Shown piece after piece: positions 1 to 61,566 of a stretch of DNA of 64,000 nt (within the stretch, counting starts at the first letter, position 1; each line of letters starts with the position of its first letter). Source of the stretch: an uncultured virus (IMG/VR IMGVR_UViG_3300014073_000001) (Duplodnaviria > Heunggongvirae > Uroviricota > Caudoviricetes). The translations under genes were made by a program, and so were the position numbers. The notes under the pieces are model-generated. The model had not been told where the DNA came from and did no database searches. It was given only the letters and a program-made list of their open reading frames with translations. The DNA lies in the IMG/VR virus record IMGVR_UViG_3300014073_000001; one strand, 5' to 3'.

Positions 1-2741
1 ACCTCTGAACTCTGTCTTATCAAAAAGCTGCCTAAATCCAATGCTTTGAGCATTTGGCCTTTATCGTCTGAATAATAATCACCGTATTCATCCATAAACA
101 TTATATTATAATATTGACCGACGAAATCAAATACGCAATTACCGACTCCACCCATATTGTCTTGCGCTTCAATTGTAACATTGTTTTGTGCGTTTAAAAT
201 AACATCTTGAGTTGAGATTCGGTATTCTATTACGGTTGGTGCCTCCATAAACTGAGTCCAATCCCGCCTTACTTTACCATTGACAAGTATTCTGTATTTG
301 ATAAGATCACCTTCAGGATCGCCTACTGTAGCACTTAAGCAGTCACCTGTTAATACTCCTGTTATTGTAGGGTTATCATTAGTACGAGTTAAGTATATGA
401 TAGTAGGAATGGCTGATTTATCGCCATCTGAAGCTTCAATTGTAATAGCATTCGTCCCTACCGGGCTAGACTCAACAGGAATTACAATATTAATTTCTTG
501 CGGACCAGCAGTTAGCTGAGTCCAAGGGACAATATCTTCCTGGTTGTTTACACTTATACGATATTGAACATCGTCTTCTTCTTTGTCTGTGATTAGCCCA
601 GTTAAAGTTGCACTTCCTACATGTATAGTGGAAGGTGACAAGTTCACATTTTGTATAACTGGCGCTTGGTTGGGGGGTAGAGATACTAGTATTTTCTCTA
701 CGTTTGGTCTGTACGTTGCCCATAACCTGTATCCTGAAGGGAGTGAGCTTGCACCTCGCAATAGAGGCTGATCTCCAAAGTTAAATGTGGCACTACTATA
801 AGACATTAATGCTGGGGCCCATTCCTGCCCTGATGGAATGCTGTATGAACCTTGATTCCCACTAGATGTTCGAATAGTTACCACATTTTTATCTAAATCA
901 ACACTAAACGATAGTGTTCCTACGGTGGCATTGGTTAAAGCTGTTACATAATTTTCGTCTATGTAAATTCCGCCGGTATTAGCGAATACATAGAAACTAT
1001 GTTTTCCGTCCCTAGATACAAGACCCTGCTTAGCCTGGTTAGCGTATGTCCCGTTAGCAGTAACTTCAAAGTAATACTTACCTTTACTTCTAAAAGCGTT
1101 ACTATAAGCAGGGTAAGTTTTTGTAGATATCACTGTCATACCGTCTTGTGAAAACGTAGCATCTTGACCATTGTCTATCCTGTAGTTATCGTAGTACTCT
1201 ATGTCTTGTACAGGAAGATACGACATTATGTCTAATTTAGTGGGTGTAAATATGTCAGCCCACATAGCAGTCGTAGCAGTATTAATATCTGACTCGGTCA
1301 TACCTACGGTTTCTACGTCTTCTTTATTACAAACACCGAAACCGTAAATAGGTATGGCCCTGTACATCTCTAGCTCAGTTATCTGTAGTCCACCAGTCGA
1401 TGTTGGGTGGTTAATATCCGTTACAACGAGTCTGTAATATAAGTACGCGGTAGAATTGGGAGCTGTATACTGGTAAAAAGTCTGTACACCGTTAGATAAT
1501 CCTGTTACAGATCTTGTGTCAAGTACAACCCACTCAGTTCCATTTACGCTTCCTTGAAATGTCCAGTCCTTGGGGAGTGCAGCACCATTAGATAGGTACA
1601 GATTTATACCGTACTTATTTATAACTACAGGGGCAGTAAACTTATACTGTAGAATAGTAGGGGATGCTACTGTTGCTCTAGTAGTCGCTGCGTAACCTGT
1701 CCATGGGTTAATAGACTTATCGAAAGCCTTGTACGGATCATAATTAGCTCCGAGTGACGTACTCCCGGACGCTACCCCAGATGGCACTATATTAGAAGTC
1801 ATAGTAGGTATAGCCGTAATTGTTTCACTACCGGGGTACCCTATGATACGTTTTCTATTATACCAGGTAACCCCGTTATCGAAGCTTACTAAGTACCTAC
1901 AATCTCTGCCTGTTACAGTTACCCCGTTTATCCCTGCGTACTTGCGCAGATCTATAGACGTAGTATTCTCAGTCTGTAAGCCACCACCGGTAGTTGTTAC
2001 TTTAGGGATGGGCTTGTAGTCAGCATCGTCTACGTATAGCGATAGTTCTGGTGAGTTAAGTATTGCGTACGTTCCCGCGCTATCCACGTATTTAAGAACA
2101 TCATCGTTAAACCCGTTCTCTATAAAGATGTCAGAACTAGGCTCATCTGTGCCTAAAGATACTAAATCAACAGTAGGTGAACTCCTAAATACTCTAAATC
2201 CTCTTAGATAGAGGCTACTAATTAACTGTGGGCTATCAATCGCAGAGACATTAATCCTGATTTTAGACGCGTATTTTGGTAAAGGTAGCGTGTAGTAAGC
2301 CATTGGATACGGATCGTCTATAGGATTATAGGAGTCGTATGTAGCATTTGATACAGTATGTATAACTTCCCAATCTGTACCCTCAGAACTAGACTCCAAC
2401 GTCCAAGATATAGGGCGTCCAATAGGGTTACTGTTAGTTTCCCCTGTTACGGAATAACCCCCTATTAGTACCGTTTCCGGAAAGTCATAACGTAACCAAC
2501 CCGTTTTAATTCCAGAAGTTGTAACCCAGCTCTGCGTGGGATTCCCCATCATTGCTCTAAATGCTCGAGTATACTGGCTGCTCTCGGAACTGGCGCTAGC
2601 TACACCGCTTGGGGTGGTATTTGAAGACATTAATGGGATACATGTTGAACTTTCTAGGTTAAAATTTATCTCGCACTTATAGTACTCGCGTTGTAAGCTT
2701 GAGTTAAGGGCAGATAATAAGTATTTTTTTGTAACTGCCAC
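1..2741 (-). CDS. Tail fibre/receptor-binding protein, partial (>910 aa, runs off left edge); two F5/8C(discoidin)-like repeats, SPRY-like domain, Ig-like repeats
   Basis: Absent from the ORF track because no stop lies in the window. GTG at 2741 directly follows the upstream stop and gives MAVTKKYLLS... It contains IPLMSSNTTPSGVASASS and IPTMTSNSAPSGVASGS repeats, SPRY-like KGKYYFEV...FNFGDQP, and is still in frame at the window edge (..DDKGQMLKALDLGSFLIRQSSE). Confidence 0.75.
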   Translation of the reverse strand, partial: MAVTKKYLLSALNSSLQREYYKCEINFNLESSTCIPLMSSNTTPSGVASASSESSQYTRAFRAMMGNPTQSWVTTSGIKTGWLRYDFPETVLIGGYSVTGETNSNPIGRPISWTLESSSEGTDWEVIHTVSNATYDSYNPIDDPYPMAYYTLPLPKYASKIRINVSAIDSPQLISSLYLRGFRVFRSSPTVDLVSLGTDEPSSDIFIENGFNDDVLKYVDSAGTYAILNSPELSLYVDDADYKPIPKVTTTGGGLQTENTTSIDLRKYAGINGVTVTGRDCRYLVSFDNGVTWYNRKRIIGYPGSETITAIPTMTSNIVPSGVASGSTSLGANYDPYKAFDKSINPWTGYAATTRATVASPTILQYKFTAPVVINKYGINLYLSNGAALPKDWTFQGSVNGTEWVVLDTRSVTGLSNGVQTFYQYTAPNSTAYLYYRLVVTDINHPTSTGGLQITELEMYRAIPIYGFGVCNKEDVETVGMTESDINTATTAMWADIFTPTKLDIMSYLPVQDIEYYDNYRIDNGQDATFSQDGMTVISTKTYPAYSNAFRSKGKYYFEVTANGTYANQAKQGLVSRDGKHSFYVFANTGGIYIDENYVTALTNATVGTLSFSVDLDKNVVTIRTSSGNQGSYSIPSGQEWAPALMSYSSATFNFGDQPLLRGASSLPSGYRLWATYRPNVEKILVSLPPNQAPVIQNVNLSPSTIHVGSATLTGLITDKEEDDVQYRISVNNQEDIVPWTQLTAGPQEINIVIPVESSPVGTNAITIEASDGDKSAIPTIIYLTRTNDNPTITGVLTGDCLSATVGDPEGDLIKYRILVNGKVRRDWTQFMEAPTVIEYRISTQDVILNAQNNVTIEAQDNMGGVGNCVFDFVGQYYNIMFMDEYGDYYSDDKGQMLKALDLGSFLIRQSSE

Positions 2742-4286
2742 TTACAACACCTCTACTTTTTTTACATAGTTACCTAGTTTAATAGTGAACTTCCTACCAG
2801 ACCCTAGTGTTGAGGTCGTGTACTCTTGTTCGTGTATAAAAGGTAACGACCTAGCTATTCCGCTAAATGCAACGTCTTCTGTTTTATAGCCACCATCGTA
2901 ACTGAGGAATGTTCGTTCCACTAACTCTCTCTTAAGGGCTTCTTTGGTTACTTTAAAAGATAGGTAACCTAGACCGCTAGGAAGTTGGTATTCGATCTTG
3001 CAGTTGTTTACTCCAGGAAGGAGGTCAGACGGGTTAATATCAAACTCTACGGTGCGAATATCTGCTGTTATTTCGCTGTAAGGTATTATTACTGTCGATC
3101 CTATAGATACTTTGTATTTACCCAGTACCTCGGCTATCCCTCGCGCCGAACCTTTAACGTGGACTACTTGTTCTTTATGTTGATGCGTAGGTGTAACAAG
3201 GAGATTGAAGTCATTACTGATATTCGTATCGAAATCAAATACAGGTAACTCGACTGCTTCTCTATTTGAGGCTATTCGGTCTGCTTGGTGTTCTTCAAGT
3301 ACGGTTACACCATCCTTATTAGAGGATCTGATAGTATCAGCAGCCATATCCATGACGATTTCGTTGTTAAGAACACGAGCACCATTTACACGGGGGCCTA
3401 CACCTAGTAGCTGCTCTACCCGTATTACAGGTTTAATTTTCCGAGTTAAAGATCCAACACCTACTAGCTGTTCTACACGTATTACCTGTTTGGTTGCTCT
3501 GGTTAGCGATCCTAGGGAATCTAGACACCCCGTTTCGTAAGAAGGCTTAATAGCTGAGCGCTCACAGGACTCTGTGGACGCGAACTCGTACCCGGTTACT
3601 TCAAGATAAGGCGTAGCCTCTACTACGTACGCATCCTCCGGGGGTGTAAAGGTTTCTGTGTATAAGGCTTTGCCATTTATTACTAAAAATTCGTCTATTG
3701 TCCCCGACATGGCGTACTGTTTGTTGCGACCTACGCCTAAGTAGCTAGGGTTGGACTTATTAAAGTATATGGGGCTCGAGTCTCCTACATCCAGTGTAAG
3801 CGTGTTTACCCCGGACATAAACGCCTTTATATACCTACCCGCTCTACATAGCGCTACATGCGTGTATGTTCCCCTGGTTAAAGGAGGCCCCATATCCTGG
3901 GCAATGTTATTACTTATCCCATTCGCACTCATATATAGGTTTGAGGAGCGAACTGACCCGTTACATAAACCCAATCCTGGTACGCCTGTCGCCGAGTTAA
4001 GGGAGAGTACAAGTAGTTCTTTATTGCTCATATCTACTGTCGGACGTACCCACAGAGCGATGGTAAAGTCGTTAATACCAAAGTTAAATAACTCAGCCTT
4101 CGTATCTAACTGGATGTACGTATTAGATAGGGAAAGCGCTCCCGTACCTGTCTTTTGAAGACTTGTGTCTATTGTTGCATTATTTTTATTAACTACTATT
4201 CCCGGTATGTTGCCGTTAATAGACGCCACATCGTCGAAATTCATAAGGAGGTAACTTTCTTCCCTTACTCCTGTAATTAATGGCAT
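2742..4286 (-). CDS. LamG/concanavalin-A-like domain tail-associated protein
   Basis: 514-aa ORF with AGGAGG RBS. LamG-like motifs DFTIALWVRP, YTHVALCR, GTIDEFLV. Short internal repeat VIRVEQLxGVG. Confidence 0.7.
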   Translation of the reverse strand: MPLITGVREESYLLMNFDDVASINGNIPGIVVNKNNATIDTSLQKTGTGALSLSNTYIQLDTKAELFNFGINDFTIALWVRPTVDMSNKELLVLSLNSATGVPGLGLCNGSVRSSNLYMSANGISNNIAQDMGPPLTRGTYTHVALCRAGRYIKAFMSGVNTLTLDVGDSSPIYFNKSNPSYLGVGRNKQYAMSGTIDEFLVINGKALYTETFTPPEDAYVVEATPYLEVTGYEFASTESCERSAIKPSYETGCLDSLGSLTRATKQVIRVEQLVGVGSLTRKIKPVIRVEQLLGVGPRVNGARVLNNEIVMDMAADTIRSSNKDGVTVLEEHQADRIASNREAVELPVFDFDTNISNDFNLLVTPTHQHKEQVVHVKGSARGIAEVLGKYKVSIGSTVIIPYSEITADIRTVEFDINPSDLLPGVNNCKIEYQLPSGLGYLSFKVTKEALKRELVERTFLSYDGGYKTEDVAFSGIARSLPFIHEQEYTTSTLGSGRKFTIKLGNYVKKVEVL

Positions 4287-4301
4287 AACGGGTTACCTCC
4301 T

Positions 4302-5270
4302 TTAAGATACTCTGATTGCGTAGTAGTTTGTAAGATCTAAGGGGATAATTTTGTATCCTCCTATTTGACCTAGGATAACTTTATAAGTGTACTGCCCGTC
4401 TGAGATTAAGTCACCATCATACAAACCAGAGAAAACATATACGCCAGCGGTAGTCTTTGGTACAACGAACAGGTCCTTTAGTAGCATTAGCATACCCTCA
4501 TAAGATCCACCACAGACTAAATCGAGTAGCATAAAGCTTCCTGTTACGTTTCTAGTCTTGAACATAGGACTTGTATCCAGTTTATATATAGGGTTAATGT
4601 CGTATGTTTTCAAAACAGGGTCATTACCAATACTAGAATATACGGATACCCCTTGATAGTAAAAACCCCCATTTCCTTGATTTCTTCTAGTTCCAAAAAC
4701 AATTAACCCTTTGGATGACGCAGAGTCCGTGGACGATGTTGAATATAGCTCGGGTGCCCCTATATACCACAGGGAACTTTTCCCATAAAATCCACTATAA
4801 GTTGCTGAAGCATCAGACGTAAACAACCCCTCAGGTAAGGTAATAGCTACTATTGCCCTATCCTTATTAATAAAAAACCTTATTGAAAAGAGGGTGGAAC
4901 TTGAAGGGGGTGTAAATACTCCGTCAAACCCATTCCCCGCATGAATAGGGAGGGCAAGTCCATACGTAGCGAATCCACCATCTACACCAGAACCAATAAA
5001 GACTCCCGCACTTCCCGAGACTCCCGGTGTATACTTTAAATAAGGCTTAGTAATCATACCCGCGTGCGATTCAGGCGCAAACGTTTGAAAGTAATAATTC
5101 TTTGTTCCACTTTCTCCGGTACTGTACCATACGTCGCCATCTGTTGCGTAGTTGCTTGTAATGTTTTCCCACCCAGCAGCGGCCAGCTTGGCTTTAAACC
5201 AAGCGTAGAAGTCGCCGTATGTAACCTGCTCACTCATAAAAATTGCAGGCTCGTACATTTCTGAAGCCAT
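4302..5270 (-). CDS. Virion structural/tail-fibre-associated protein (paralog of 5283-6146)
   Basis: 322-aa ORF sharing KLAAAGW, YTPGVSG and GGSYEG motifs with the neighbouring 287-aa protein. Confidence 0.6.
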   Translation of the reverse strand: MASEMYEPAIFMSEQVTYGDFYAWFKAKLAAAGWENITSNYATDGDVWYSTGESGTKNYYFQTFAPESHAGMITKPYLKYTPGVSGSAGVFIGSGVDGGFATYGLALPIHAGNGFDGVFTPPSSSTLFSIRFFINKDRAIVAITLPEGLFTSDASATYSGFYGKSSLWYIGAPELYSTSSTDSASSKGLIVFGTRRNQGNGGFYYQGVSVYSSIGNDPVLKTYDINPIYKLDTSPMFKTRNVTGSFMLLDLVCGGSYEGMLMLLKDLFVVPKTTAGVYVFSGLYDGDLISDGQYTYKVILGQIGGYKIIPLDLTNYYAIRVS

Positions 5271-5282
5271 GTTTTTATCCTC

Positions 5283-6146
5283 CTACTCTGTACGCACCGC
5301 TAGAGCCAAACTTTGGAAAGAGTTGTAACCTTGAGATTGACATACTAGGGCGTAGTATTTCTTAGCACCAATTGTGATAGTGTCTCCTGTAACCAGATTT
5401 CCTAGAGGGAGGGCATAAATCCCGTCAAGCTTACCACGTACACCCTCAGTTGCGCTACCATAGTAAATATGAGATACTGCGTACTTACCCGCGTTATTGG
5501 GGTTTTTAGGAGAGATGGTTGCGTAAGTAGACACAGTATAAGTTGCTGTAACAGTCCCCAACCCGGATGGGGTATTGCATATAGATATTGTATTAGCTCC
5601 AGGACCATTAGCAGTAGTACCAAATAGGACTCCACGACTGGCCCCTTCTGTACAGTATAGGCTATCCGGCAGACCCATGTATATTAGCATAGGTCCTAAA
5701 TTGGTAGCATAGGGGTACTCCATCGCTAGTATGATCTTGCTGGCATCTGCGTATACTTTGTAATTAATTGTAGTATCCATAGGAAGTGTTCCAGTTGTCT
5801 GCGTTGTAGGTACAATGTCCAGTGCTGACCAAGCTAAGGCGGATCTACCAAATGTTCCTGCTACGCCTGCTGCTCCAGGAGTATAAGTATCTTGCAGTCT
5901 ATACGATATTGTGCAGTACGCAGTTGTCTTAACAGAGTTAGCATTAGAAGCATTGGTATCTCTAATATTTAGCACAAGAGCCTGGTCGCCTGTATTACCA
6001 GCTGATTTTAGGACAGTACCATCTGAAGAAGCTAGAGATGCTACAGAAGTCCACCCTGCTGCAACCAATTTACTAACAATTAGATCGAATATACCGCTCT
6101 TAGCAACTGTACCACTCTGGAAAATATAATCTGTAGGAATAGCCAT
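5283..6146 (-). CDS. Virion structural/tail-fibre-associated protein
   Basis: 287-aa ORF with GGAGG RBS. KLVAAGW...YTPGAAGVAG...EGVRGKLDGIY resembles Bacillus myophage tail-module proteins. Confidence 0.6.
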   Translation of the reverse strand: MAIPTDYIFQSGTVAKSGIFDLIVSKLVAAGWTSVASLASSDGTVLKSAGNTGDQALVLNIRDTNASNANSVKTTAYCTISYRLQDTYTPGAAGVAGTFGRSALAWSALDIVPTTQTTGTLPMDTTINYKVYADASKIILAMEYPYATNLGPMLIYMGLPDSLYCTEGASRGVLFGTTANGPGANTISICNTPSGLGTVTATYTVSTYATISPKNPNNAGKYAVSHIYYGSATEGVRGKLDGIYALPLGNLVTGDTITIGAKKYYALVCQSQGYNSFQSLALAVRTE

Positions 6147-6164
6147 TAAAATTTACCTCCATAG

Positions 6165-6199
6165 AACTAACAGCAGATATCAATTATCTGCTGTTAGTT
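6165..6199. terminator. Inverted repeat (stem-loop) between gene blocks
   Basis: AACTAACAGCAGAT-n7-ATCTGCTGTTAGTT, a 14-bp perfect stem. Confidence 0.55.
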
Positions 6200-6237
6200 A
6201 ATCATTATTATTTTCTACTTATCGAGATTGATAAAAA

Positions 6238-6723
6238 TCAGGTGTAAAAGTATTGAATACGAAGCCTGAAATCATGTTTGCCGGCTGGCGCATTTAAGGG
6301 GACGCCTACTTTGAAAGTCATCTTAGAGTGGTTCTCTGCTGCTTCTTCCATAATGCCGCTATTAGCAATACCTTTAACAAGATTGCCCTCCGCAGCAGTT
6401 ACGCCCTGGGCACGAACAGGGCGAGCATCAACTCCACCAATAGCAGAGAACTTCTTGACTCCCCCAACTACTTCAGCCGTAGTATCGACCAGAACTTTCA
6501 TCCATCTCTCAGTAATCATTTTCGATTGATCACCAGCAGTGCCATCCAGGCAGGTTACACTAACATCTTGCATATCGGATACATCTTCCGCGCCGCCTTT
6601 GTTGTTCCAAACAACGACGTTTAGAGTAGGCGATTCGGTATTCGCATCTACTTCACCGATATCCCATCGATCAACGACAGCAGAGCTGCCTTCGTTATAA
6701 AATGTCACTAGAGGTTGAGCCAT
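6238..6723 (-). CDS. Phage structural protein (WNN-motif family, paralog of 12005-12451)
   Basis: ATG 6723 follows an AAGGAG RBS. VVWNNKGG motif. Confidence 0.6.
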   Translation of the reverse strand: MAQPLVTFYNEGSSAVVDRWDIGEVDANTESPTLNVVVWNNKGGAEDVSDMQDVSVTCLDGTAGDQSKMITERWMKVLVDTTAEVVGGVKKFSAIGGVDARPVRAQGVTAAEGNLVKGIANSGIMEEAAENHSKMTFKVGVPLNAPAGKHDFRLRIQYFYT

Positions 6724-6816
6724 TATAACCACTCCTTATTTGTTTTAGTAAGTAACTGTTGTTCGTTTATACATTACCTGTGATTTGTTCAATAATCACA
6801 GAGTAATAATTAAAAA

Positions 6817-7239: not shown

Positions 7240-7377
7240 TCAGTATTCTCCTTCCTACCTTGCGTTGAAATCAATACGATTGCTCGAAGTTCATCTTCGC
7301 AAGGCTGTACTATTTATTTTTTATTAAAAGCAGGGGTAACTGCTTTGGGCCTATTTAATTGGGAAAGCTTTAAGAAT

Positions 7378-7992: not shown

Positions 7993-8009
7993 TATCATGC
8001 CCTCCTCTC

Positions 8010-10235: not shown

Positions 10236-10278
10236 ACTTATGCCCCCTTTCAACAATAGGTTATATGTTTCATTGATA

Positions 10279-10284
10279 TATTAC
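10279..10284 (-). promoter_or_regulatory. GTAATA putative late-promoter element
   Basis: About 44 nt upstream of ATG 10235. The same motif recurs upstream of most transcription units. Confidence 0.45.
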
Positions 10285-10313
10285 TGGCTTAAACACACGA
10301 ATTGACATGAGGG

Positions 10314-16337: not shown

Positions 16338-16338
16338 C

Positions 16339-55323: not shown

Positions 55324-56339
55324 TAAACTTCAACTCCTATTCCAATAGAACACTTCTCAATAGAATGAACCGTCCATATGTCGAAACGATTCAGTACTAC
55401 GACTGTTCCCGGGTCGCTTTGGTATGAGGTAATTGATTCAATACGAAAATCCTCTATAATATACCCCTTAAGGGATTGCAAGAATGTTTTGAGCTTCTGC
55501 TCGATGCGAAGCTTCTGATAACCGGTAAACAGCTTTCCTTTGAATTCGGAGAAGTCGATTTCACGCTTAATATATTTAACAATTCGATCGATTGTTACGA
55601 TCTTTTGAGGCCCGTCTTCCCTAAAGTTCAAGAGATTTTCAATCGATGTTTCCGCTATCGAGTTATTCTTGAAAAATGCCAGCTCACTACCGACATCGAA
55701 CGTATCGATATTGAATATTGCCGGCCCGAATGCTAAGGTCGGATAGCTATCAAGGTCACATACACATAAGGCGCTTGCTAATACAACGTTCGCTAACGGA
55801 TAGTTAGCGAGGTTGTTAGCAACAAAAATCAAATTCTGGCCTTGTAGGTTCTTTGAAGAATTGATGTGAAACTGACTGATAAGCTCCTCCATTTCACCGA
55901 TAAAACCATCTAAGTCTTCGTATAGCGAGGCGTGCTTGTCGGTAACTATGAGAGTAGAGTCATTAAAGCCGCCGATCTCTTCCAGGATGTATTGAAAATA
56001 TGTGATGCGCTTATTGTCGTGATAGGCATCGTTATAACCATCAGACATGAAAAGATTTACCGGAACGATATAGGTAAAATCATTGTGTTTGAGCGTAGTT
56101 ACAATATCAAAATAGTCGTGGTTTCGTTTGACATTTATTAAGAAGATGTTCTCGACGCCAAATCCTTTTGCGACCTTGAAAGCGCTTGTTAATTTACATT
56201 CTCCATAGCTTTCGATCACGGCCTGAATGGTGTCGAAATACGTTACTTCATTTAGCTTGTAGTTGGTTTTTGCCGTACCGATAAGTACCATGTTCTTGTG
56301 TTTATCAATTGTCTGCATTATCTCTGCCATGCTAACCAC
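55323..56339 (-). CDS. Short sheath-like protein
   Basis: VLIGTA...V...YG...LT.AF..A N-terminus and C-terminal RIVKYIKR..DF.EFKGK...KI...L..FL..L...I.DF.I both resemble sheath terminal domains. Confidence 0.45.
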   Translation of the reverse strand: MVSMAEIMQTIDKHKNMVLIGTAKTNYKLNEVTYFDTIQAVIESYGECKLTSAFKVAKGFGVENIFLINVKRNHDYFDIVTTLKHNDFTYIVPVNLFMSDGYNDAYHDNKRITYFQYILEEIGGFNDSTLIVTDKHASLYEDLDGFIGEMEELISQFHINSSKNLQGQNLIFVANNLANYPLANVVLASALCVCDLDSYPTLAFGPAIFNIDTFDVGSELAFFKNNSIAETSIENLLNFREDGPQKIVTIDRIVKYIKREIDFSEFKGKLFTGYQKLRIEQKLKTFLQSLKGYIIEDFRIESITSYQSDPGTVVVLNRFDIWTVHSIEKCSIGIGVEV

Positions 56340-56778
56340 GCCCTATAATTTTATTGAAGTTCTGAAGGAAGGTCTGGATACTTACCTTCTTGGGCGTGGT
56401 TACGCACTTATAGTATAACGGCACCTGGTGATCACCCCGAATCTTCTCCAGTCGCTGTACGACATCAACTTCCATGCCATTAACAAAGATGTTATCCTGA
56501 TAGATTGGAGTATTACCCTTTACGTAGTAGACTCTGGTAGTTGCCTTCTCTCCCACGCTCTGTAAGCGAATAGAAACTTTACTATTTTGGCTTACACCTT
56601 TGATCTTTTTAATCCGAATCTTCTTTCCTGTCCCCAAACACTTTGGACAACAAATTACGGCCTGCTTAGTCGTGAAATTTACACAGCTGCAGTCTATTTT
56701 GAACTCCTGCTGCACCACGAACATCTCACAGGAAACCTTGTTCAATACTTTAAGAATGCTGCTATTAAATGGGTTCAC
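56332..56778 (-). CDS. Head-closure/neck-like protein with Zn-finger motif
   Basis: CSC-x10-CPKCLGTG motif in the neck-gene position. Confidence 0.55.
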   Translation of the reverse strand: MNPFNSSILKVLNKVSCEMFVVQQEFKIDCSCVNFTTKQAVICCPKCLGTGKKIRIKKIKGVSQNSKVSIRLQSVGEKATTRVYYVKGNTPIYQDNIFVNGMEVDVVQRLEKIRGDHQVPLYYKCVTTPKKVSIQTFLQNFNKIIGRG

Positions 56779-57377
56779 TCATCATTCCTCCTGAGCCCGT
56801 GCCCGGGTAACATTTGAGGATAGTCGCTGTTAGCACGGCTTTCATTTTTGTAACCACGTACTGCATCTTCCCATTTTTCAAGCTCATCCTTAAGAATTTT
56901 AATTAGGTCTTGTATGCCCTCAAAACGTGTTGCGTTTTCAAACGTAATATCACCCAGCGTTCCTTTTGAACCACTATCGGCTACTTTCTCAACATATGCT
57001 TTTAGCAAAGCATCAAGGGAAGCTTTCGTTTTAACGAATTGCTCCACCTCAAAAATGATAGAACCGTCGGTGTTTGTTACTGTTCCTGTGCCCTTTAGAT
57101 AATCGGCATACCGCGATGCCTCCCGTATGTAATACAGCAGCTTATCCTCTGGTATACCAAATACTTCTACTAGTGCGTTAACATCCTCTATGGTGCAATA
57201 CGAAGGTGTCAGCTCAGTAACTACCTTAAGAGTTAAAGATTCAAGCTTTTTGTTCTTATTAGGAGCTTTTAATCCCTTAATGCGGATTTCATATACCGAA
57301 TTGTTTTTAATTGCTTCAGCAGGAGTAATTTCTAAGAAATTATCAAAAACTTTATAAGTTGTCTGCACTCGTTCCAT
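56775..57377 (-). CDS. Neck/adaptor-like protein
   Basis: 200 aa. TPSYCTIEDV...IREASRYAD...TLGD motif typical of head-tail adaptor-like proteins. Confidence 0.5.
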   Translation of the reverse strand: MERVQTTYKVFDNFLEITPAEAIKNNSVYEIRIKGLKAPNKNKKLESLTLKVVTELTPSYCTIEDVNALVEVFGIPEDKLLYYIREASRYADYLKGTGTVTNTDGSIIFEVEQFVKTKASLDALLKAYVEKVADSGSKGTLGDITFENATRFEGIQDLIKILKDELEKWEDAVRGYKNESRANSDYPQMLPGHGLRRNDE

Positions 57378-58148
57378 TTATAACGTCCTCCTTGTTACAA
57401 GGATTTCAATATTCTCAGTATCAAGGTTTCCGTCAAATTCAATCAAGAAAGAGTTTGGTGTGACGCCATTTACTGGTGTCGACACAACAATTAGCTCGTC
57501 ATCATAGGCCGGAGCGTCACCCGGATTAGGAGCAGGCACATTCGAAGTTTTCTTATGCAGGAAAGTAATCACATCACTCCAACTACCATACTGGTTGCCA
57601 GATTGGGCACGTATACGTACGTAATATTGGCCTTCAGGGATATCCGTTAAGCTGATCTCGTTTTTGTCATACACATTGGTCGCAGTGACAAGGTTATAGA
57701 ATGCATTCTCCTTGGCAATTTCTATATAATAAGAATTGACTAGATCCATGTCTTCTTTAGCTAACTTTTCAGTCCAGGCTAATTTCAGCTTATTAACTTC
57801 TTCATAGTCGCTTGGGCTGGTGACCACCACAGTAGATGTAATTTCACTAGGAAAAATTATCTTGCGCTTAAGAGCAGCAGATAAGGCTTCATCTGTGATA
57901 GATTTAATTCCAGTCTGAACGACCAGCATGTACTCAACATTAGGAACAGGCCAATCTTTGAGATCGAGTTCAATAATCGGACCGTTTACTGCTAGATCGT
58001 AGTTCATAATCCGACTTGAGTAACGACTGGTCAGAGTGATTGTATCGACAGTTACTGAGTCTTCGTCGACATCCAGCGTACACTCGATGTATACCTTCTT
58101 ATCTTTTAAAGATGCTGCTATCCCCAGGATATCGAATTTCTGGTACAT
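57378..58148 (-). CDS. Ig/fibronectin-III-like virion protein
   Basis: 256 aa. FN3-like GQYYVRIRAQSGNQYGSWSDV. Confidence 0.55.
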   Translation of the reverse strand: MYQKFDILGIAASLKDKKVYIECTLDVDEDSVTVDTITLTSRYSSRIMNYDLAVNGPIIELDLKDWPVPNVEYMLVVQTGIKSITDEALSAALKRKIIFPSEITSTVVVTSPSDYEEVNKLKLAWTEKLAKEDMDLVNSYYIEIAKENAFYNLVTATNVYDKNEISLTDIPEGQYYVRIRAQSGNQYGSWSDVITFLHKKTSNVPAPNPGDAPAYDDELIVVSTPVNGVTPNSFLIEFDGNLDTENIEILVTRRTL

Positions 58149-58152: not shown

Positions 58153-58653
58153 TCACACCTTTACTGGCACATTTTTTTTTCTTGCGGCTGGTTCTCTTTC
58201 CGGCGCCTTCTTCAGCAACTTTCTCAGCTGCTTCTTGGGCACTTCAGCTGCCTTTTCAAGAACGACAATATCAACTACACCGGATTCTTCAGCAAGAGTA
58301 CCGACTACGGGAGCGGTTTTTATTTCGACTGAATCTTCGACAACAGGCACTACGTCAATAACTGACTCGGTCACAGAAACGGCTGTAGTATCCTCTACTG
58401 CAAAAGCAGGAGCTACTGCTCCGGTAAATCTATTACCTTTCTTTCCAAGGTCAAGCTTCTTCTCTTCACCGAGAGAGCCGGACAACAGACGCAAACGACC
58501 AGACTTTACAGACCGGCGAAGTTGTGTGCAATTTGTACCTGCCAAAATTTCTCTTAGCGGATTGCTCTGTGTCAAATGAATACGACTTAACTCGTCATAA
58601 TAGCCGGACTCGCCTATATTCAGTCTTACTACTGCAATAATCTCTTTACTCAT
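58153..58653 (-). CDS. Hypothetical phage protein (gene expected directly downstream of major capsid)
   Basis: 166 aa. N-terminal GYYDELSRIHLT..NP...LRRSVKSGRL block and low-complexity C-terminus. The synteny claim is from recall. Confidence 0.5.
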   Translation of the reverse strand: MSKEIIAVVRLNIGESGYYDELSRIHLTQSNPLREILAGTNCTQLRRSVKSGRLRLLSGSLGEEKKLDLGKKGNRFTGAVAPAFAVEDTTAVSVTESVIDVVPVVEDSVEIKTAPVVGTLAEESGVVDIVVLEKAAEVPKKQLRKLLKKAPEREPAARKKNVPVKV

Positions 58654-58687: not shown

Positions 58688-58813
58688 TTACCCAAATATG
58701 AGATAAATAGCGGTTACCGAATAGCCGTTATAAGGCGCGTTTTTGCTGCTACCAGGTGCTTCATAGAGAATTTGTTGCTCTATAGGATTCAGCTTCTTTC
58801 GCCAAAACATCAA
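58688..58813 (-). pseudogene. Short stub (possible portal N-terminus remnant)
   Basis: GGTGAGG RBS, then ATA TAA TTA TCT GAT TTG ATG TTT TGG CGA AAG AAG (x*LSDLMFWRKK...). A 40-codon ORF in the slot where head genes are expected. Confidence 0.25.
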
Positions 58814-58867
58814 ATCAGATAATTATATGGCCTCACCGTCACTTAAGTGGTTGCTAAGTCTTTGTTA

Positions 58868-59941
58868 TTATTTTTTTGCAGTTTCTGCCTTAGACATTGC
58901 GATACTTTCTTGCGTCGCGTAGATGTTAACACCGTTCTTTAGCAACGTCCCTTTAGCCTGAGATTCCTTCTTGCTCATAGCTAACGTATCATCAATAATC
59001 ATTACCGATGCATTTAGGTATTTGTACACATCATAAAGAGATTGATTGTACTTTTTGTTATATTGGGCCCTAGACTCGCGCAAGAGTGTGTTGCTTTGCG
59101 AGTTGAGATAAGTCTCACTATCGCCGTACTTCGCCGCGTAATAGCGCTCACGCTGCTTCTCAGCGGCATATAAGGAGCGTATATGCATCATTGTCTGATC
59201 AATATTGTGTGTTTTCTTAAATAGCCGAGTTTTCTGCTCCCTTACTACCTGAGAACGGACAATATAGTCACCGAGATGCTTTAGATTGGGATTACGTATA
59301 ATAACGGCCGTTCCGTCATAAGGCCTTGTCAGTTCTGCTATATCAGAAAGACCGGTCTCTGACATAATCATGATCATATCTTGTAAATATCTTTGCATAA
59401 CCGTCTGTAGTTTCTTGGTATAATCCTCTTTCAAATCAATAAGATCTTGCTTGTATGTGTTCTCGGCGATCTCTACCAAGGACTTAGGTGTAATAATTTC
59501 AATTTTAATAGCTGTGGAGTTTGGCAATAACTCTGGGAGCTCAGGATCTAGATACTCATATTCATCAATTAATTCGAGAACTGGCGGCAAATCTGGCAAC
59601 GATTCTTCCACCTCCGGATTATATACTTCCGTAATTGGTACATCCGATGGTTCTGGCTCTCCTTCGGGGAATATTATCTTAATTTGCTCAATTATTGGAT
59701 TTATTGGCCCCTCTATGATTGCAGGAAGGTCACCCGGTAAAAACTGGGCTACTTCTTTAATTTCCTCAAGGTCTTCTATTAGTTGTGTTAACCGGTCCTT
59801 CGCTGGAGTCGTTTCCTCTGGGGTAACCACTACTGTGGTTGTTCCCTGCTCGGGTATCAACGCATCAGAGTGATAATCGCGTTCCGGCTGCAAATCGGGT
59901 TTGTAAAAAAGACTTTCTTTATTATCCATGCTGTAATTCAC
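58868..59941 (-). CDS. Hypothetical phage protein (357 aa), Pro/Glu-rich N-terminal half
   Basis: Long ORF with a YKPDLQPERDY motif. Confidence 0.6.
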   Translation of the reverse strand: MNYSMDNKESLFYKPDLQPERDYHSDALIPEQGTTTVVVTPEETTPAKDRLTQLIEDLEEIKEVAQFLPGDLPAIIEGPINPIIEQIKIIFPEGEPEPSDVPITEVYNPEVEESLPDLPPVLELIDEYEYLDPELPELLPNSTAIKIEIITPKSLVEIAENTYKQDLIDLKEDYTKKLQTVMQRYLQDMIMIMSETGLSDIAELTRPYDGTAVIIRNPNLKHLGDYIVRSQVVREQKTRLFKKTHNIDQTMMHIRSLYAAEKQRERYYAAKYGDSETYLNSQSNTLLRESRAQYNKKYNQSLYDVYKYLNASVMIIDDTLAMSKKESQAKGTLLKNGVNIYATQESIAMSKAETAKK

Positions 59942-60045: not shown

Positions 60046-60183
60046 CTACCACATTGATCTACCACCGCTATTACCTCCTCACCCGCCCATTCGTGATCCT
60101 CATGAAAGTGCCCAGGATTGCCAGAATCGCCTTGAACTTTGCACGCTCAACTAGAGATATTTTATATAGGATGGTATATTCAT
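60046..60183 (-). pseudogene. Collapsed gene remnant, likely terminase large subunit (N- and C-terminal ends fused)
   Basis: After an AAAGGAG RBS the fragments read ISLVERAKFKAILA and, in another frame, S*GSRMGG*GGNSGGRSMW*. The identity is from recalled similarity to large-myophage terminases plus position. Confidence 0.4.
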
Positions 60184-60191: not shown

Positions 60192-60779
60192 TTACATGCC
60201 CGGTCTTGGAGCTTGTCCATAGAGCTGTGCATTGCTTTGCTGTCCTCGACTGCTGGCCAAGGAGCTTACCACACCTGCGGTCACTAATGCGCTAGCACCA
60301 ATTTTTCGAATGCTATTTCCATAGAGGTTATCTGTCGTTGTCAGGCCTTTCTTCAAATGCGCTGAATGATGTCCATACACGTCGCCCGCCATTTGGCTTA
60401 CAGACATGCTTTCCTGCCCTTTGATGTTATAGCCTTTGGCAACCTCTACCCTGCTTACCTCAGACTGTATTGCACCGATAGCGGCATCATATTGGTTTTG
60501 CACTTGCTGGACCTGATATTGCTTGCCTTTAGTTACACTCAATCCAGCTTCGAAAATCTTGCGGTCTGCAGATTTAACTCTCGTTTCCATAAGCTCTGCC
60601 CCTTCGGCTGCAGATTGGGTGGCTTTCCTTCGCTGCGCCGTTCGTTCAAATTTATATAAACTGCCTATTCTGCCCCCGCTGCTATTTGGAGCAATATCAC
60701 TTACAAAACCGCCTTGCATTTCAGCAGAAGTCTTTCTGCCTCTTCGGAATAGTTGACCGGCTTTTGCTAAATTACTCAA
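60192..60779 (-). CDS. Small virion/ejection-type protein with C-terminal hydrophobic Gly/Ala segment
   Basis: 195 aa, C-terminal IGASALVTAGVVSSLASSRGQQSNAQLYGQ. Confidence 0.55.
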   Translation of the reverse strand: MSNLAKAGQLFRRGRKTSAEMQGGFVSDIAPNSSGGRIGSLYKFERTAQRRKATQSAAEGAELMETRVKSADRKIFEAGLSVTKGKQYQVQQVQNQYDAAIGAIQSEVSRVEVAKGYNIKGQESMSVSQMAGDVYGHHSAHLKKGLTTTDNLYGNSIRKIGASALVTAGVVSSLASSRGQQSNAQLYGQAPRPGM

Positions 60780-60793: not shown

Positions 60794-61255
60794 CTATCTA
60801 TGCATGTATTTAGCCTCGTTTCCTAGCATCGTCTGCTGAAGGCTATATTTGGATTTTTGTGCCAATGCCATTCCAGCTTGACGCATTGTATATACTTGCT
60901 GAGAATCAGTAAACTGTGCATTATTAAATGGTCTTTGAGTGCTTTGTTGAGCTAACTGACGACCATACTGATCATAGGATTCTGCAATGCTAACAGTTGC
61001 AGATGGGAGTTCGGTAATTCCTATGTAAGCGGCATACCCCCATGGCCCCATGATCATCGGTAATGCCTCTTCAGCTACCGCGTTACCAATAGATGCTATT
61101 ACTCCATTGCCTTCTTTTCGGGCTGTAGAATAGTCCATATATTTGAAACCAAGGTCTATGCCTGTGTTAACTGCGTCACCTATACTTATTTTACCACCTA
61201 CCTTACCGCCAAGTTTTTTTACCATGTCGGTTGTCGCTCTCAACAATGACGCCAT
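60794..61255 (-). CDS. Small phage protein (expected upstream of terminase in large myophages)
   Basis: 153 aa with GGAGAGG RBS. C-terminal F.DSQQ.YTMRQ...LGNEAKYMHR motif. Confidence 0.6.
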   Translation of the reverse strand: MASLLRATTDMVKKLGGKVGGKISIGDAVNTGIDLGFKYMDYSTARKEGNGVIASIGNAVAEEALPMIMGPWGYAAYIGITELPSATVSIAESYDQYGRQLAQQSTQRPFNNAQFTDSQQVYTMRQAGMALAQKSKYSLQQTMLGNEAKYMHR

Positions 61256-61512: not shown

Positions 61513-61560
61513 ACTTGTCACCTCCTACGGCTTTCACGGAAATTGCCGGCTGTAGATAAC

Positions 61561-61566
61561 TATTAC
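61561..61566 (-). promoter_or_regulatory. GTAATA putative late-promoter element at head of morphogenesis operon
   Basis: About 49 nt upstream of ATG 61512. A second copy lies at 61667-61672. Confidence 0.45.

Follow-up and report, generated by a model that had tools for sequence, protein, structure and literature searches.

An in-place loss of head and packaging genes from the tail operon of a plasmid-maintained, very large Bacillus-type phage

The window, which is the whole 64-kb stretch analysed here and part of a contig measuring at least 154,403 b, is the operon with which a very large Bacillus-type phage, maintained as a plasmid, builds its tail. It represents one end of a plasmid-like element with a jumbo-myophage ancestor in the 0305phi8-36 / pBtic235 lineage, and the host of this element is probably a member of the soil Bacillales. 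The operon runs on the minus strand from 61255 to 1 and contains 42 co-oriented open ORFs (at least 120 aa, between 61255 and 3), totalling 59,280 nt, the largest being 2713, 2545 and 1672 aa. A previous reading of the sequence only (the sequence-only reading) had described about 45 co-oriented ORFs of up to ~2700 aa; orientation and size stand, and the count is 42 with our threshold. The last ORF (3..2741) crosses the window start and the operon's end therefore lies beyond the 64 kb. The operon head and the region upstream of it contain:

62361..63215, plus strand: partition ATPase of the ParA type, in divergent orientation to the tail operon (PF13614, 1e-34; NCBIfam PrgP-like, 1.3e-35)
63178..63999, plus strand: ParB-like gene, weakly assigned, overlapping the end of ParA and open at the window end
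61736..62007, minus strand: broken HD-domain (HD_5) gene in two fragments, between ParA and the operon head
61706..61737, no strand: perfect inverted repeat of 14 nt with a 4-nt loop, upstream of the operon
60794..61255, minus strand: first gene of the operon, 153 aa, with a C-terminus resembling 0305phi8-36 gp115 (tblastn, L001 10679-10792, 2.8e-5)
60192..60779, minus strand: 195-aa gene at the position of 0305phi8-36 gp116, with no family match in Pfam, PHROGs or NCBIfam
60115..60183, minus strand: residual start of the terminase large-subunit gene (junction 1), with ribosome site and ATG followed by a broken frame
58868..59941, minus strand: 357-aa all-helical protein whose conserved family separates terminase from portal in all relatives, and which survives between the two deletions
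58691..58822, minus strand: dead remnant of the portal N-terminus (junction 2; BLASTP E 2e-5)

The top tblastn matches of the ParA gene were Bacillales plasmid ParA genes (40-47% identity), and its ParB-like neighbour matched PF02195 (E 0.0062) and TIGR00180 (4.6e-4), both below the family cut-off. The HD_5 gene persists as two ORFs (49 and 40 aa) whose frames differ, corresponding to profile positions 44-89 (E 0.013) and 109-134 (E 0.0056). The inverted repeat, 100% complementary in the repeat search, is a possible two-way terminator. Profile searches with Pfam, PHROGs and NCBIfam did not find any holin, endolysin, regulator, lysis cassette or effector in the window.

We compared this arrangement with that of related loci, where the 153-aa gene is followed by terminase, 357-aa gene, portal, protease, decoration, capsid and neck. 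This order is complete in L005-L007, L009-L011, L017, L018 and L020-L023; L016 covers only the capsid-to-neck end, the shorter L004, L008 and L019 agree over the portion covered, and the portal starts of L012, L013 and L015 and the neck genes of L012-L015 occupy matching places. Of 20 metagenome loci, 19 have a homologue of the 153-aa gene upstream of the terminase, and the remaining one (L008) begins too late to include it. An equivalent head block is present in 0305phi8-36, MTATph1 and pBTHD789-2, and in L003, the closest relative (sheath 79% identical), the capsid gene is immediately upstream of the neck. The window retains the 153-, 195- and 357-aa genes and the neck, with the terminase and the portal-to-capsid genes missing. 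None of its 42 ORFs matched capsid, portal, protease or terminase families (Pfam, PHROGs, NCBIfam), and the relatives' head proteins, used as tblastn queries, gave no match in the 64 kb beyond the junction remnants. Both approaches agree with the earlier observation that no intact gene of these four types lies between operon head and neck, and extend it to the 64 kb.

Of the genes retained near the operon head, the 195-aa gene matches, by its C-terminus alone, the ORF following the 153-aa homologue in L017 (E 0.004). The 357-aa protein has 53 homologues, many of which lie on 150-260-kb contigs; its AF2 model (pLDDT 67) shows long helices and no meaningful fold match, and a profile comparison links it weakly to gp118-like proteins (probability 33%). 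When proteins were linked by the length of their contigs, eight relatives' contigs held both a 357-aa homologue and a capsid protein, and neither the 120 of 995 capsid matches listed nor the 103 members listed for 10 capsid clusters included any of the five contigs of the window lineage.

The two gaps coincide with gene remnants. By-eye comparison with the terminase N-termini of five relatives revealed, at junction 1, around 14-16 terminase-like codons followed by a deletion joint near 60114; BLASTP gave no support to this remnant. Run X1, from a soil metagenome, departs from the window exactly at 60115 and continues for 557 further letters, the first 30 of which, translated by hand, encode the next terminase motif (7 of 9 residues matching). 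At junction 2, the remnant matches portal residues 3-28 and 2-42 of L004 and L005; it retains the ribosome site, its start codon is ATA and its second codon is a TAA stop. The stretch of ~6.5 kb that encodes portal, protease/scaffold, decoration and major capsid in relatives is absent beyond this remnant, and homology to L003 resumes at 58666. Because the portal and terminase remnants sit exactly at the two junctions, both losses are deletions in place, one removing portal, protease/scaffold, decoration and major capsid, and a second one the terminase. The head and packaging genes were thus deleted in place, rather than merely situated beyond the window, and of the short broken stubs reported by the sequence-only reading, that of the portal is well founded and that of the terminase weakly supported. 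A contig from X1 also spans junction 2 (58331-59183), and the portal-to-capsid deletion is common to the window and this ~4%-diverged variant, which keeps more of the terminase. X1 differs from the window at 267 of 6,822 letters (3.9%; eight listed pieces), and a second run, X2, at 357 of 7,806 (4.6%; listed pieces).

Downstream of junction 2, the module comprises the neck, sheath, tube, chaperone, tape-measure, hub, baseplate and fibre genes of the 0305phi8-36 / pBtic235 / Moorella MTATph1 lineage:

58153..58653, minus strand: 166-aa gene, the first after the capsid gene in relatives (58% identity to L003 4773-5294, concentrated in the N-terminal 44 aa)
57378..58148, minus strand: Ig/fn3-type virion protein, 256 aa, 0305phi8-36 gp127-like (67% identity to L003; weak fn3 match)
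56775..57377, minus strand: head-to-tail adaptor with a HK97 gp6 / Mu gp36-like fold (AF2 pLDDT 71; VIA-align)
56332..56778, minus strand: neck/virion protein, 148 aa, at the gp136 position (phrog_38102, 2e-8)
55323..56339, minus strand: 338-aa protein at the sheath-like gp137 position (71% identity to L003)
54676..55323, minus strand: gp138-like virion protein, 215 aa, directly upstream of the sheath (phrog_20284, 1.7e-27)
51762..54653, minus strand: tail sheath, 963 aa (phrog_16991, 2.4e-59; 79% identity to L003)
51073-51705, minus strand: tail tube, 210 aa (phrog_9206, 5.5e-55), a gp140/gp141 counterpart
49404-50975, minus strand: tube paralogue, 523 aa (phrog_9206, 8.2e-40), a gp140/gp141 counterpart
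47028..49400, minus strand: 580-aa and 209-aa proteins of the gp142 region (58% and 72% identity to L003)
45815..47018, minus strand: two-gene tail chaperone pair, 128 and 270 aa, gp143/gp144-like (tblastn, L001 45720-46511 and L002 23800-24601)
37112..45801, minus strand: 312-aa protein and 2545-aa candidate tape measure, by position, with no family match
26962..36822, minus strand: ORFs of 330 and 124 aa and a 2713-aa baseplate hub homologue, gp147-like (phrog_20474, 1.6e-196)
23222..26965, minus strand: baseplate block of 122, 351, 324, 170 and 263 aa, the last baseplate J/wedge-like and the rest positional
3..23219, minus strand: distal genes of 1672, 620, 633, 653 and 748 aa and smaller ORFs, leaving the window
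within 3..23219, minus strand: 514-aa laminin-G/lectin protein, then a discoidin-domain protein of at least 913 aa

In the neck, gp127 of 0305phi8-36 matches homologues of the 256-aa protein in L005 and L026, and the 148-aa protein has C30, C32, C44 and C47 invariant in 9 of 9 sequences. The 338-aa protein is syntenic with 0305phi8-36 gp137 and MTATph1 CDS17, each annotated as 'tail sheath', and the 215-aa protein, with homologues in L001, L002, L025, L026 and L027, is by position possibly a sheath or tail terminator. The adaptor model aligned with the phage 812 neck (Z 8.4), the Mu neck subunit (Z 8.3, rmsd 2.5 over 91 aa) and HK97 gp6 (Z 7.2), and 34 of 50 rows of the fold search were phage neck, connector, portal-tail or tail entries. 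In the window copy, a frameshifting internal deletion replaces the conserved C-terminal ~37 aa, present in six relatives, among them a 94%-identical 217-aa variant. The DNA alignment lacks 50 + 14 nt, the former C-terminal coding sequence persists out of frame, and X2 has 74 letters at this site versus 15 in the window. This frameshift, affecting the head-joining part, was the only lesion found across the 42 ORFs. The leftovers of terminase and adaptor, both head-related, decay while ~59 kb of tail ORFs stay open.

The C-terminal domain of the sheath shares 27-32% identity with those of 0305phi8-36, MTATph1 and 24 plasmids. PHROGs labels the tube and its paralogue as 'major head protein', which we consider an annotation error because gp140/gp141 are annotated as tail tube in 0305phi8-36. 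The 209-aa protein has a tube-like N-terminus, and the 580/209-aa region also matches L001 43805-44026 and plasmids. The counterparts of the chaperone pair are annotated as tail chaperonins, their two-gene form being described in PMC2147016. The 2545-aa candidate tape measure corresponds in place to gp146 (2537 aa) of 0305phi8-36, and the 312-aa protein, which corresponds to the ~1,900-aa gp145-type protein but is much shorter, matches the N-terminus of a giant ORF in L003 and the C-terminus of MTATph1 CDS26. In tblastn, the hub homologue (26962-35103) matched its counterparts in MTATph1, 0305phi8-36 and three other Bacillus phages, and the Pfam search found no peptidoglycan-hydrolase or other cell-wall hydrolase domain in it. 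In the baseplate block we found phrog_7378 (5e-5) and a tblastn match to an MTATph1 'baseplate wedge subunit' (5.8e-11), with the 122-aa ORF in the gpV-like spike position; 0305phi8-36 and MTATph1 carry homologues of the chaperone pair, the hub and the baseplate J-like gene in matching order. The distal block, presumed to encode fibres and receptor binders, matched PF13385 (1.1e-11), PF00754 (4e-13), phrog_17517 'tail protein' (1.5e-51) and phrog_9130 (3.8e-48). Of the full myophage tail proposed before, homology identifies sheath, tube, chaperones, hub and a baseplate J-like gene; spike, tape measure and fibres are assigned by position. Every gene recognised as part of tail, baseplate or fibres is still open.

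Since the head and packaging genes were deleted in place and the tail genes are intact, the element probably makes giant headless tails. We favour, with a probability of roughly 0.6, a plasmid-borne producer of headless tails that is kept by selection. The shared in-place deletion and the open tail ORFs support the selective loss postulated by the sequence-only reading, with function as the conjectural part of its domestication proposal. Several points count against our reading: the part of the operon within the window yielded neither holin, endolysin, regulator or lysis cassette nor a cell-wall hydrolase domain in the hub; untidy gene fragments persist at the junctions, which Hardies et al. 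(PMC2147016) take as a sign of a relic rather than of a selected module change; at least one headless relative, pBWB401, looks decayed, with a fragmented tube gene; and the adaptor fold match is middling (Z 7-8.4) for a helical domain.

These fragments, the nearby HD-domain pseudogene, the frameshifted adaptor, the state of pBWB401 and the description of pG9842_140 as a 'degenerated prophage remnant' in PMC8026635 would all fit a recently crippled plasmid-prophage in neutral decay, which lost its head accidentally, has had too little time to erode and does not use the particle. We nevertheless consider this unlikely. There are no premature stops in the 42 ORFs (59,280 nt), whereas neutral simulations yielded 8.5, 17 and 34 stops at 0.5%, 1% and 2% divergence, and 0 of 200 runs kept all 42 ORFs open even at 0.5%. 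The portal-to-capsid deletion is common to a ~4%-diverged variant, although the selection argument presupposes a deletion older than 4-5% divergence, as shown for X1 at junction 2 only. Four sheath variants of the same 90%-identity cluster are full length, with merely 15-16 differences per 963 aa and no indels, and the 12 of 59 indels listed all fall outside ORFs. An independent headless pair, pG9842_140 and a B. thuringiensis plasmid, shows a pN/pS of 0.13 (224 synonymous and 112 non-synonymous differences in 28 tail-operon genes). The substitutions listed for the window show only a mild skew (20 synonymous versus 18 non-synonymous; 38 coding substitutions among the 40 changes listed, of 805 in all) that would suit decay, with 13 versus 14 among those listed for the two neck genes.

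Less probable still is a complete virus making headed virions with head and packaging genes elsewhere on the replicon, either relocated or replaced by another head module. Structural genes can be scattered in jumbo phages, the window covers 64 of at least 154 kb, and the neck genes are mostly intact and as strongly conserved with respect to L003 as the tail genes. However, the loss occurred in place at two separate joints with the intervening gene kept, terminase erosion differs in extent between variants, the adaptor is without its conserved C-terminus, and the five lineage contigs have no linked capsid among the matches listed, as opposed to the eight relatives' contigs. Moreover, the lineage includes complete headless replicons of 136-142 kb.

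Very improbable is a helper-dependent element with its own tails and with heads and terminase borrowed from a co-resident related phage, the mirror image of capsid-forming satellites, which borrow tails: plasmid-style maintenance, retention of most neck genes and the far higher conservation of head proteins in the lineage (capsid 70-78% versus neck 25-40% identity), by which borrowed heads would be compatible, speak for it, but the portal-docking adaptor is frameshifted in the window copy, no packaging signal or small terminase was identified in the window, no headed relative was shown in the same samples, and no precedent was found in the literature searched.

If the element is a selected producer of headless tails, a promoter located at 61256 to about 61700 would still drive the operon, whose products would assemble a very long contractile tail without a head. 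By analogy with R-type tailocins, lysis of a few producer cells would free the particles, which would bind and puncture related Gram-positive cells; the benefit to the plasmid's host would hold the tail genes under purifying selection. We infer the killing activity of the tails from the same analogy. The 'weapon or protein injector' of the sequence-only reading was an extrapolation. The searches found neither lysis cassette, regulator, effector nor cell-wall hydrolase domain in the window, and nothing in it is eCIS-like.

The lineage, previously taken as unrecognised, is that of the 0305phi8-36 / pBtic235 plasmid-prophages. Its sheath is present in 24 PLSDB plasmids, 19 with capsid, portal and terminase and five with none of the three; PF05065 and PF03237 were absent from the whole records of four of these five, and both were found in the control. 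Headless members are partly in print already, namely pG9842_140 and the Clostridium saccharoperbutylacetonicum N1-4 megaplasmid, one of the five. The latter has been tied to giant headless contractile 'X particles' of ~450 x 24 nm in a review (PMC10538166, section 8.3), on whose wording N1-4 particle production and killing rest. The candidate tape measure of the window is as long as that of 0305phi8-36, and the predicted tail would resemble the N1-4 particles.

The minus strand of the window contains 42 densely packed open reading frames (ORFs) of at least 120 aa, running from 61255 down to 3, the longest of them with 2713, 2545 and 1672 aa. The last of the operon, 3..2741, is still open where the window starts, and the GC content stays at 39-46% along the entire window. 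Tail components were recognized with PHROGs, with Pfam and NCBIfam contributing almost nothing further for these ORFs. The features on which the analysis draws, including two beyond the operon head, are as follows.

63178-63999, plus strand: ParB-like gene (weak match; cut by the window end)
62361-63215, plus strand: ParA gene, beyond the operon head (profile match)
51762-54653, minus strand: tail sheath (PHROGs, 2.4e-59)
51073-51705 and 49404-50975, minus strand: two tube-family genes (PHROGs; counterparts of gp140 and gp141 of Bacillus phage 0305phi8-36)
26962-35103, minus strand: hub-family giant (PHROGs, 1.6e-196)
within the tail operon, minus strand: several 'virion structural' proteins (PHROGs)

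The PHROGs label 'major head protein' for the tube genes was rejected, because the notes of the 0305phi8-36 record describe gp140 as tail tube and gp141 as a tube paralogue. The same mislabel of this lineage's tube proteins occurs in phrog_9206, in RefSeq NC_009760.1 (gp140/gp141) and in CDS20/22 of Moorella phage MTATph1, a 2023 record, and is spreading through annotation transfer. Likewise, the label 'endolysin' on the hub was carried over from a RefSeq name, and no peptidoglycan-hydrolase domain was found in this protein. The candidate tape measure has 2545 aa as compared with 2537 aa for gp146 of 0305phi8-36, in whose lineage a long tape measure and a long tail have been argued to be old traits (PMC2147016). 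A 312-aa ORF (44863-45801, minus strand) matches both the N-terminus of an ORF of at least 1270 aa in L003, the nearest relative, and the C-terminus of the 1949-aa CDS26 of MTATph1, indicating that it is the counterpart, strongly shortened yet in frame, of the ~1,900-aa gp145-type virion protein. In the 148-aa neck protein (56332-56778, minus strand), C30, C32, C44 and C47 are invariant in nine of nine relatives and likely form a zinc-binding knuckle. Neither a holin/endolysin nor a stress-responsive regulator was found among the 42 ORFs of the 64-kb window, beyond which the operon continues; scans of the window for tRNAs and Rfam families gave nothing, and promoter and terminator scans of it performed no better than on shuffled sequence.

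Searches by tblastn with the sheath and the hub retrieved, as nearest, Bacillus phage 0305phi8-36 (219 kb), MTATph1 (177 kb) and Bacillus phages Edson, WH1 and KLEB27-3 (217-234 kb). A homologous sheath, tube paralogues, a two-gene chaperone, a hub and a baseplate were found in conserved order, and the synteny comparison with large Bacillota myophages, proposed by the sequence-only reading, showed that the neck-to-baseplate order agrees with that of phages of the 0305phi8-36/MTATph1 type. The same reading did not recognise the lineage among described tailocins; gene homology and order place the window in the known 0305phi8-36/pBtic235 lineage. Of the named members, pBtic235 is described as an intact inducible prophage maintained as a plasmid (PMC8026635), and BtI1 and BwK1 as relatives of 0305phi8-36 (PMC2147016). 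The window's own contig has 154,403 b and its variants lie on contigs of 131,614 and 163,998 b, the replicons of the lineage being of ~180-260 kb. L003, an IMG/VR contig, encodes a sheath 79% identical to that of the window. Megablast of 18-24 kb of the window against phages and plasmids gave no match, and no relative was found by searching genome contigs with the sheath or viral contigs with a 357-aa protein encoded upstream of the neck.

The genes directly upstream of the neck in L003 encode a capsid protein (Phage_capsid_4, 7.4e-11; phrog_3922, 1.2e-19), a 537-aa protein and a 433-aa protease/scaffold-like protein. DNA homology between L003 and the window begins 15 nt ahead of the first neck gene, at window position 58666, and searches of the 64-kb window with the L003 head proteins gave no match. 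For the 357-aa ORF (58868-59941), 53 homologues were retrieved, a large share of them from contigs of 150-260 kb, so that it is not junk. Their alignment led to 20 metagenome loci for gene-order comparison, in which a 153-aa gene is followed by the terminase (often split by insertions), the 357-aa gene, portal, protease/scaffold, decoration and capsid genes, and then the neck as in the window. This order is seen whole in L005-L007, L009-L011, L017, L018 and L020-L023; for L016 the order was read at the capsid-to-neck end only, the shorter L004, L008 and L019 agree within their span, and for L012-L015 the comparison covers portal starts (L012, L013 and L015) and neck genes (all four), both at matching coordinates. 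Given the conserved order in relatives, the window has two separate gaps: the terminase is absent, only 250 nt separating the 195-aa gene from the 357-aa gene (junction 1), and so is the portal-to-capsid stretch, of ~6.5 kb in relatives, in whose place 214 nt separate the 357-aa gene from the 166-aa gene (junction 2).

That the head genes are missing and have left short broken stubs, as noticed from the sequence alone, held on closer comparison. At junction 2 (58822-58691, minus strand), a peptide starting LSDLMFWR can be aligned with the portals of L004 (residues 3-28) and L005 (residues 2-42), in both cases at E 2e-5; the ribosome site of this remnant is retained, and the start codon has become ATA, followed by TAA. 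At junction 1, an ATG (60183-60181) with a ribosome site ahead of it leads into a broken frame with ISLVERAKFKAILA, which resembles, when compared by eye, the start of the terminase in relatives, LSPIEQAKLQKIMA. BLASTP of this terminase remnant gave no support, so that it is weak evidence taken alone and depends on the comparison by eye together with the position of the joint. Both gaps are deletions in place; no repeats flank the deletion joints.

A possible third remnant (61444-61515, minus strand) comprises 17 aa with 65% identity (E 0.016-0.04) to five related loci, the longer alignment holding a stop; its target is the C-terminus of a ~230-aa protein, whose gene in these five relatives precedes the 153-aa homologue by ~2 kb. 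From this slight similarity, the head of the operon may bear a further deletion scar. In many relatives the terminase is cut into 2-4 pieces by insertions (L005 5828-9717; L007, L009, L017-L021 and L023; L027 3790-6684), some of which encode LAGLIDADG homing endonucleases, with an intein or intron in plasmid pBTHD789-2. The 357-aa protein matched nothing in PHROGs, Pfam or NCBIfam, gave nothing usable in the Atlas and only generic helical rows with Foldseek; against gp118-like proteins, the hhalign probability was 33%. Two of its distant homologues (P0051 and P0052, 29-30% identity), one named from Lysinibacillus, contain an NlpC/P60 (C40 peptidase) domain.

Four public sequencing runs containing relatives were compared over window positions 50001-64000. 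In the listed pieces, 267 of 6,822 letters differ from the window in X1, a soil metagenome, and 357 of 7,806 in X2, a second run. A contig of X1 spans 58331-59183 unbroken, indicating that the portal-to-capsid deletion is common to X1 and the window. At junction 1, X1 departs from the window exactly at 60115, where 557 unlike letters follow. The first 30 letters past this point, hand-translated on the minus strand, give VLFAKAFVN, with seven of nine residues matching VLWAKAFVR of the relatives' terminase, where this motif comes immediately after the LSPIEQAKLQKIMA-type start. X1 thus retains more of the terminase than the window. X2 and the window share the sequence below 60123; at 60124-60136, inside the terminase remnant, X2 contains 403 letters in place of the window's 13, which could be an insertion or a longer terminase remnant. 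Losses appear to be nested, with the capsid block going first and the terminase being eroded later, and unevenly.

The 200-aa ORF at 56775-57377, a candidate head-to-tail adaptor, can be aligned with its relatives up to about residue 181, and lacks the C-terminal ~37 residues that are conserved in six relatives, one of them a 217-aa variant of the same lineage with 94% identity. DNA alignment with L003 shows 50+14 nt missing, with the former C-terminal coding sequence persisting out of frame; at 56814-56830, X2 has 74 letters as compared with 15 in the window. This frameshift is the one lesion found in the operon. The AlphaFold model of the protein (pLDDT 71, pTM 0.61) combines a beta domain at the N-terminus with a helical domain. 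Foldseek against pdb with this model gave nothing at E 1e-3 or better. An exhaustive VIA search placed residues 58-177 on phage head-to-tail adaptors, with the phage 812 neck (Z 8.4), the Mu neck subunit (Z 8.3; rmsd 2.5, 91 aa), the Mu neck (Z 7.7) and HK97 gp6 (Z 7.2; 90 aligned, 96-residue chain) among the matches, and 34 of its 50 rows were phage neck, connector, portal-tail or tail entries. The protein thus matches the HK97 gp6/Mu gp36 adaptor fold in this search alone, with Z values that are middling for a helical domain and signify fold resemblance, not proof. The leads from the Atlas (Phage_Mu_Gp36, 0.85; Phage_connect_1, 0.81) and the position of the gene are consistent with this match. 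No Pfam match, to PF05135 or PF07030, was obtained for the adaptor or for any of nine alignment members; profile searches of PDB sequences with the 200-aa and 148-aa alignments, and of PHROGs with the adaptor alignment members, also gave nothing. Judging from its fold, the 200-aa protein would work like an adaptor, without being filed in either Pfam family. Adaptors of the HK97 gp6/Mu gp36 type hold the portal by a C-terminal arm, and it is this part that the window's candidate adaptor has lost. The variant series shows the sequence in which head functions are shed: every variant checked is without portal-to-capsid, the terminase is eroded to differing degrees, and one variant has a broken adaptor.

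All 42 ORFs (59,280 nt) are free of premature stops. Neutral simulations with the observed substitution spectrum produced 8.5, 17 and 34 premature stops at 0.5%, 1% and 2% divergence, respectively, and none of 200 runs was free of stops. The 90% cluster that includes the window's sheath has four further members, encoded on other contigs; each has the same length, 963 aa, and between 15 and 16 residue differences, without any indel. Separately, the sheath pieces of X2 differ from the window at 116 of 2,592 nt. Of 59 indels, the 12 that were listed are all outside coding sequence. Among the 40 substitutions listed of 805, the 38 coding ones comprise 20 synonymous and 18 non-synonymous changes, a mild skew in a small sample; within this same sample, the ratio is 5:1 in the 357-aa gene and 13:14 in the adaptor plus a 256-aa gene. 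Between the window and L003, pS is at least 0.74 in 13 of 13 genes, so that synonymous sites are saturated and dN/dS of this pair is uninformative. Together, the open ORFs as set against the simulations, the deletion shared with a variant diverged by ~4% and the conservation of the sheath indicate that the tail genes were kept by selection after head loss. The core of the sequence-only proposal, a selective loss of head functions with the tail retained, is thus borne out by the in-place deletions and open tail ORFs; its novelty is not, as the lineage is known and headless members (without capsid, portal and terminase genes) had been noticed before.

The terminase, portal, protease/scaffold, decoration and capsid genes that precede the neck in a complete virion's genome are represented in the window by dead remnants only, indicating that, so far as the window shows, it is a derivative of the 0305phi8-36/pBtic235 lineage and not a complete phage. 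As to the rest of the replicon, variants with at least 90% identity to the window's proteins occur on contigs of 163,998, 131,614, 36,525 and 17,364 b. Proteins on one contig can be linked through the contig's length, and eight contigs of relatives were linked in this way both to a 357-aa homologue and to a capsid protein (lengths 252309, 126374, 178298, 9671, 57701, 224689, 29300 and 241435). By the same indirect linking, none of the five own-lineage contigs appears among the 120 listed of 995 capsid matches or the 103 listed members of 10 clusters. Contractile-tail genes without capsid, portal and terminase are found within the 64-kb window, with contig linking as indirect support. A relative on a 161,128-b contig (P0003 and P0300; 66% identity in the 357-aa gene and 70% in the adaptor) is in none of the capsid lists and its adaptor C-terminus looks degenerate too; it may be a further headless member.

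Beyond the operon head, the ParA gene and the adjacent ParB gene indicate a partition system, of which ParA is clear and ParB weakly supported and incomplete at the window end. The best matches of ParA are in Bacillales plasmids (40-47% identity). The interval between ParA and the operon contains two short ORFs in different frames (61736-62007, minus strand) that match successive parts of HD_5 (HD-GYP-type) and represent a broken HD-domain gene. Adjoining them, a perfect 14-nt inverted repeat with a 4-nt loop (61706-61737) may be a two-way terminator.

In PLSDB, 24 plasmids match the sheath. Searches by tblastn with a relative's capsid, portal and terminase retrieved 20 plasmids each, the same 19 of the 24 each time, leaving five headless plasmids: NC_020292.1 (Clostridium saccharoperbutylacetonicum N1-4, 136 kb), NC_011774.1 (B. 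cereus pG9842_140), NZ_CP132202.1 (142 kb), NC_010180.1 (pBWB401, 417 kb) and CP052064.1 (552 kb). The whole records of the N1-4 megaplasmid (W01) and pG9842_140 (W02) gave no match with the relative's capsid, portal and terminase, and these two and two further whole headless records (W04 and W05) gave none with PF05065 and PF03237; the complete control, pBTHD789-2 (W03), was positive with all five queries. Three of the five headless plasmids are of 136-142 kb, whereas the 19 complete plasmids range over 185-260 kb. As in the window, three of the five have a partition gene ahead of their tail operon, at a distance of at most ~5 kb in the two 140-kb plasmids and, in N1-4, of ~11 kb from the operon's first gene.

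Gene order is shared by the two 140-kb plasmids, of which 28 tail-operon genes differ by 224 synonymous and 112 non-synonymous changes (pN/pS 0.13). Both pG9842_140, which we take to be CP001188.1, and the 141.8-kb B. thuringiensis plasmid are, like the window, headless, with a partition gene a few kb upstream and an intact tail operon of the same lineage, but their partition gene is ParM and the sheath identity 29%. In print, CP001188.1 is classed with Myoviridae as a 'degenerated prophage remnant' in which components of the terminase and capsid are missing (PMC8026635). In pBWB401 (BwK1; L033 12395-22079), the homing-endonuclease part of the terminase and a gene in the position of the 357-aa gene are kept and followed by the sheath region; portal-to-capsid is absent, in parallel to the window. 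The tube gene of this plasmid is annotated as three small fragments, indicating that some headless copies do decay.

The N1-4 megaplasmid, Csp_135p, resembles the window in that it encodes ParA and has a tail operon belonging to this lineage, with no capsid, portal or terminase on its 136,188-b record, and differs in its Clostridium host and a sheath C-terminal identity of 28%. Its head loss is independent of that of the window, since a capsid gene persists in L003, to which the window is most closely related. According to a review (PMC10538166), induction of N1-4 occasionally yields giant tail-like 'X particles', headless contractile tails of ~450 x 24 nm with wavy fibres, which 'appear to be encoded' by an element outside the chromosome with homology to the genomes of Bacillus phages. 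Headless members have thus been noticed before in print, though not explained. Apart from this review (PMC10538166), no jumbo-derived tailocin was found described among the titles and abstracts listed by full-text searches; enterocoliticin, considered as a candidate, was rejected since it is an ordinary cosmid-sized cluster (PMC13030884).

Our most far-reaching reading, to which we assign a probability of 0.4, is that jumbo phage-plasmids of the 0305phi8-36 lineage have repeatedly become plasmid-borne makers of the largest known tailocin-type particles, headless contractile tails of ~0.45 micrometres, with separate origins in the soil lineage of the window, among plasmids of the B. cereus group and in the Clostridium megaplasmid. 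The window would stand midway in this process, the capsid having gone first, the terminase being eroded next and the adaptor now breaking, with the tail selected as a weapon against Gram-positive competitors. A role of the window's tail as weapon or injector is one that we can only infer, because no lysis, regulatory, effector or wall-degrading function was found in the part seen. To our knowledge, all well-studied tailocins come from small myophages or siphophages, mostly of Gram-negative bacteria. A jumbo phage-plasmid tail operon of >61 kb kept after head loss would, if true, greatly widen the size range and ancestry of phage-derived particles, and with plasmids as their carriers a weapon could travel with the plasmid. 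Additionally, the half-forgotten X particles of solvent clostridia gain a genetic explanation that is testable in available strains, and strong purifying selection may act on plasmids now classed as 'degenerated prophage remnants', as the pN/pS of the 140-kb pair illustrates.

Among known systems, eCIS (Afp, PVC and MAC) are likewise headless contractile particles, a likeness known on the window's side from genes alone, and some of them are plasmid-borne, as is Afp on pADAP. Unlike eCIS, the window encodes neck proteins of the phage type together with a chaperone pair and a giant candidate tape measure, and no AAA+ ATPase, effector/toxin cargo or PAAR/VgrG-type family of the Afp/PVC kind was found in its 42 ORFs with Pfam, PHROGs and NCBIfam. 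With 0305phi8-36, pBtic235 (BtI1) and MTATph1 the window shares, at 25-50% protein homology, a neck, sheath, tube and paralogues, two-gene chaperone, giant tape measure, giant hub and baseplate in equal order; in these three, unlike the window, terminase, portal, protease/scaffold, decoration and capsid genes precede the neck and virions are formed. The tailocins known so far go back to small phages of the P2, Mu or phiCD119 type; their clusters take up ~15-40 kb of the chromosome and include regulators and lysis genes of their own. The window, known from genes alone, differs from the R-type ones (R-pyocins, diffocin and carotovoricin) in its operon of >61 kb, its jumbo lineage, its plasmid-like element and the lack of lysis or regulatory genes in the part seen. 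In concept it resembles them, as a set of contractile-tail genes from which those for head and packaging have been lost and which the host retains.
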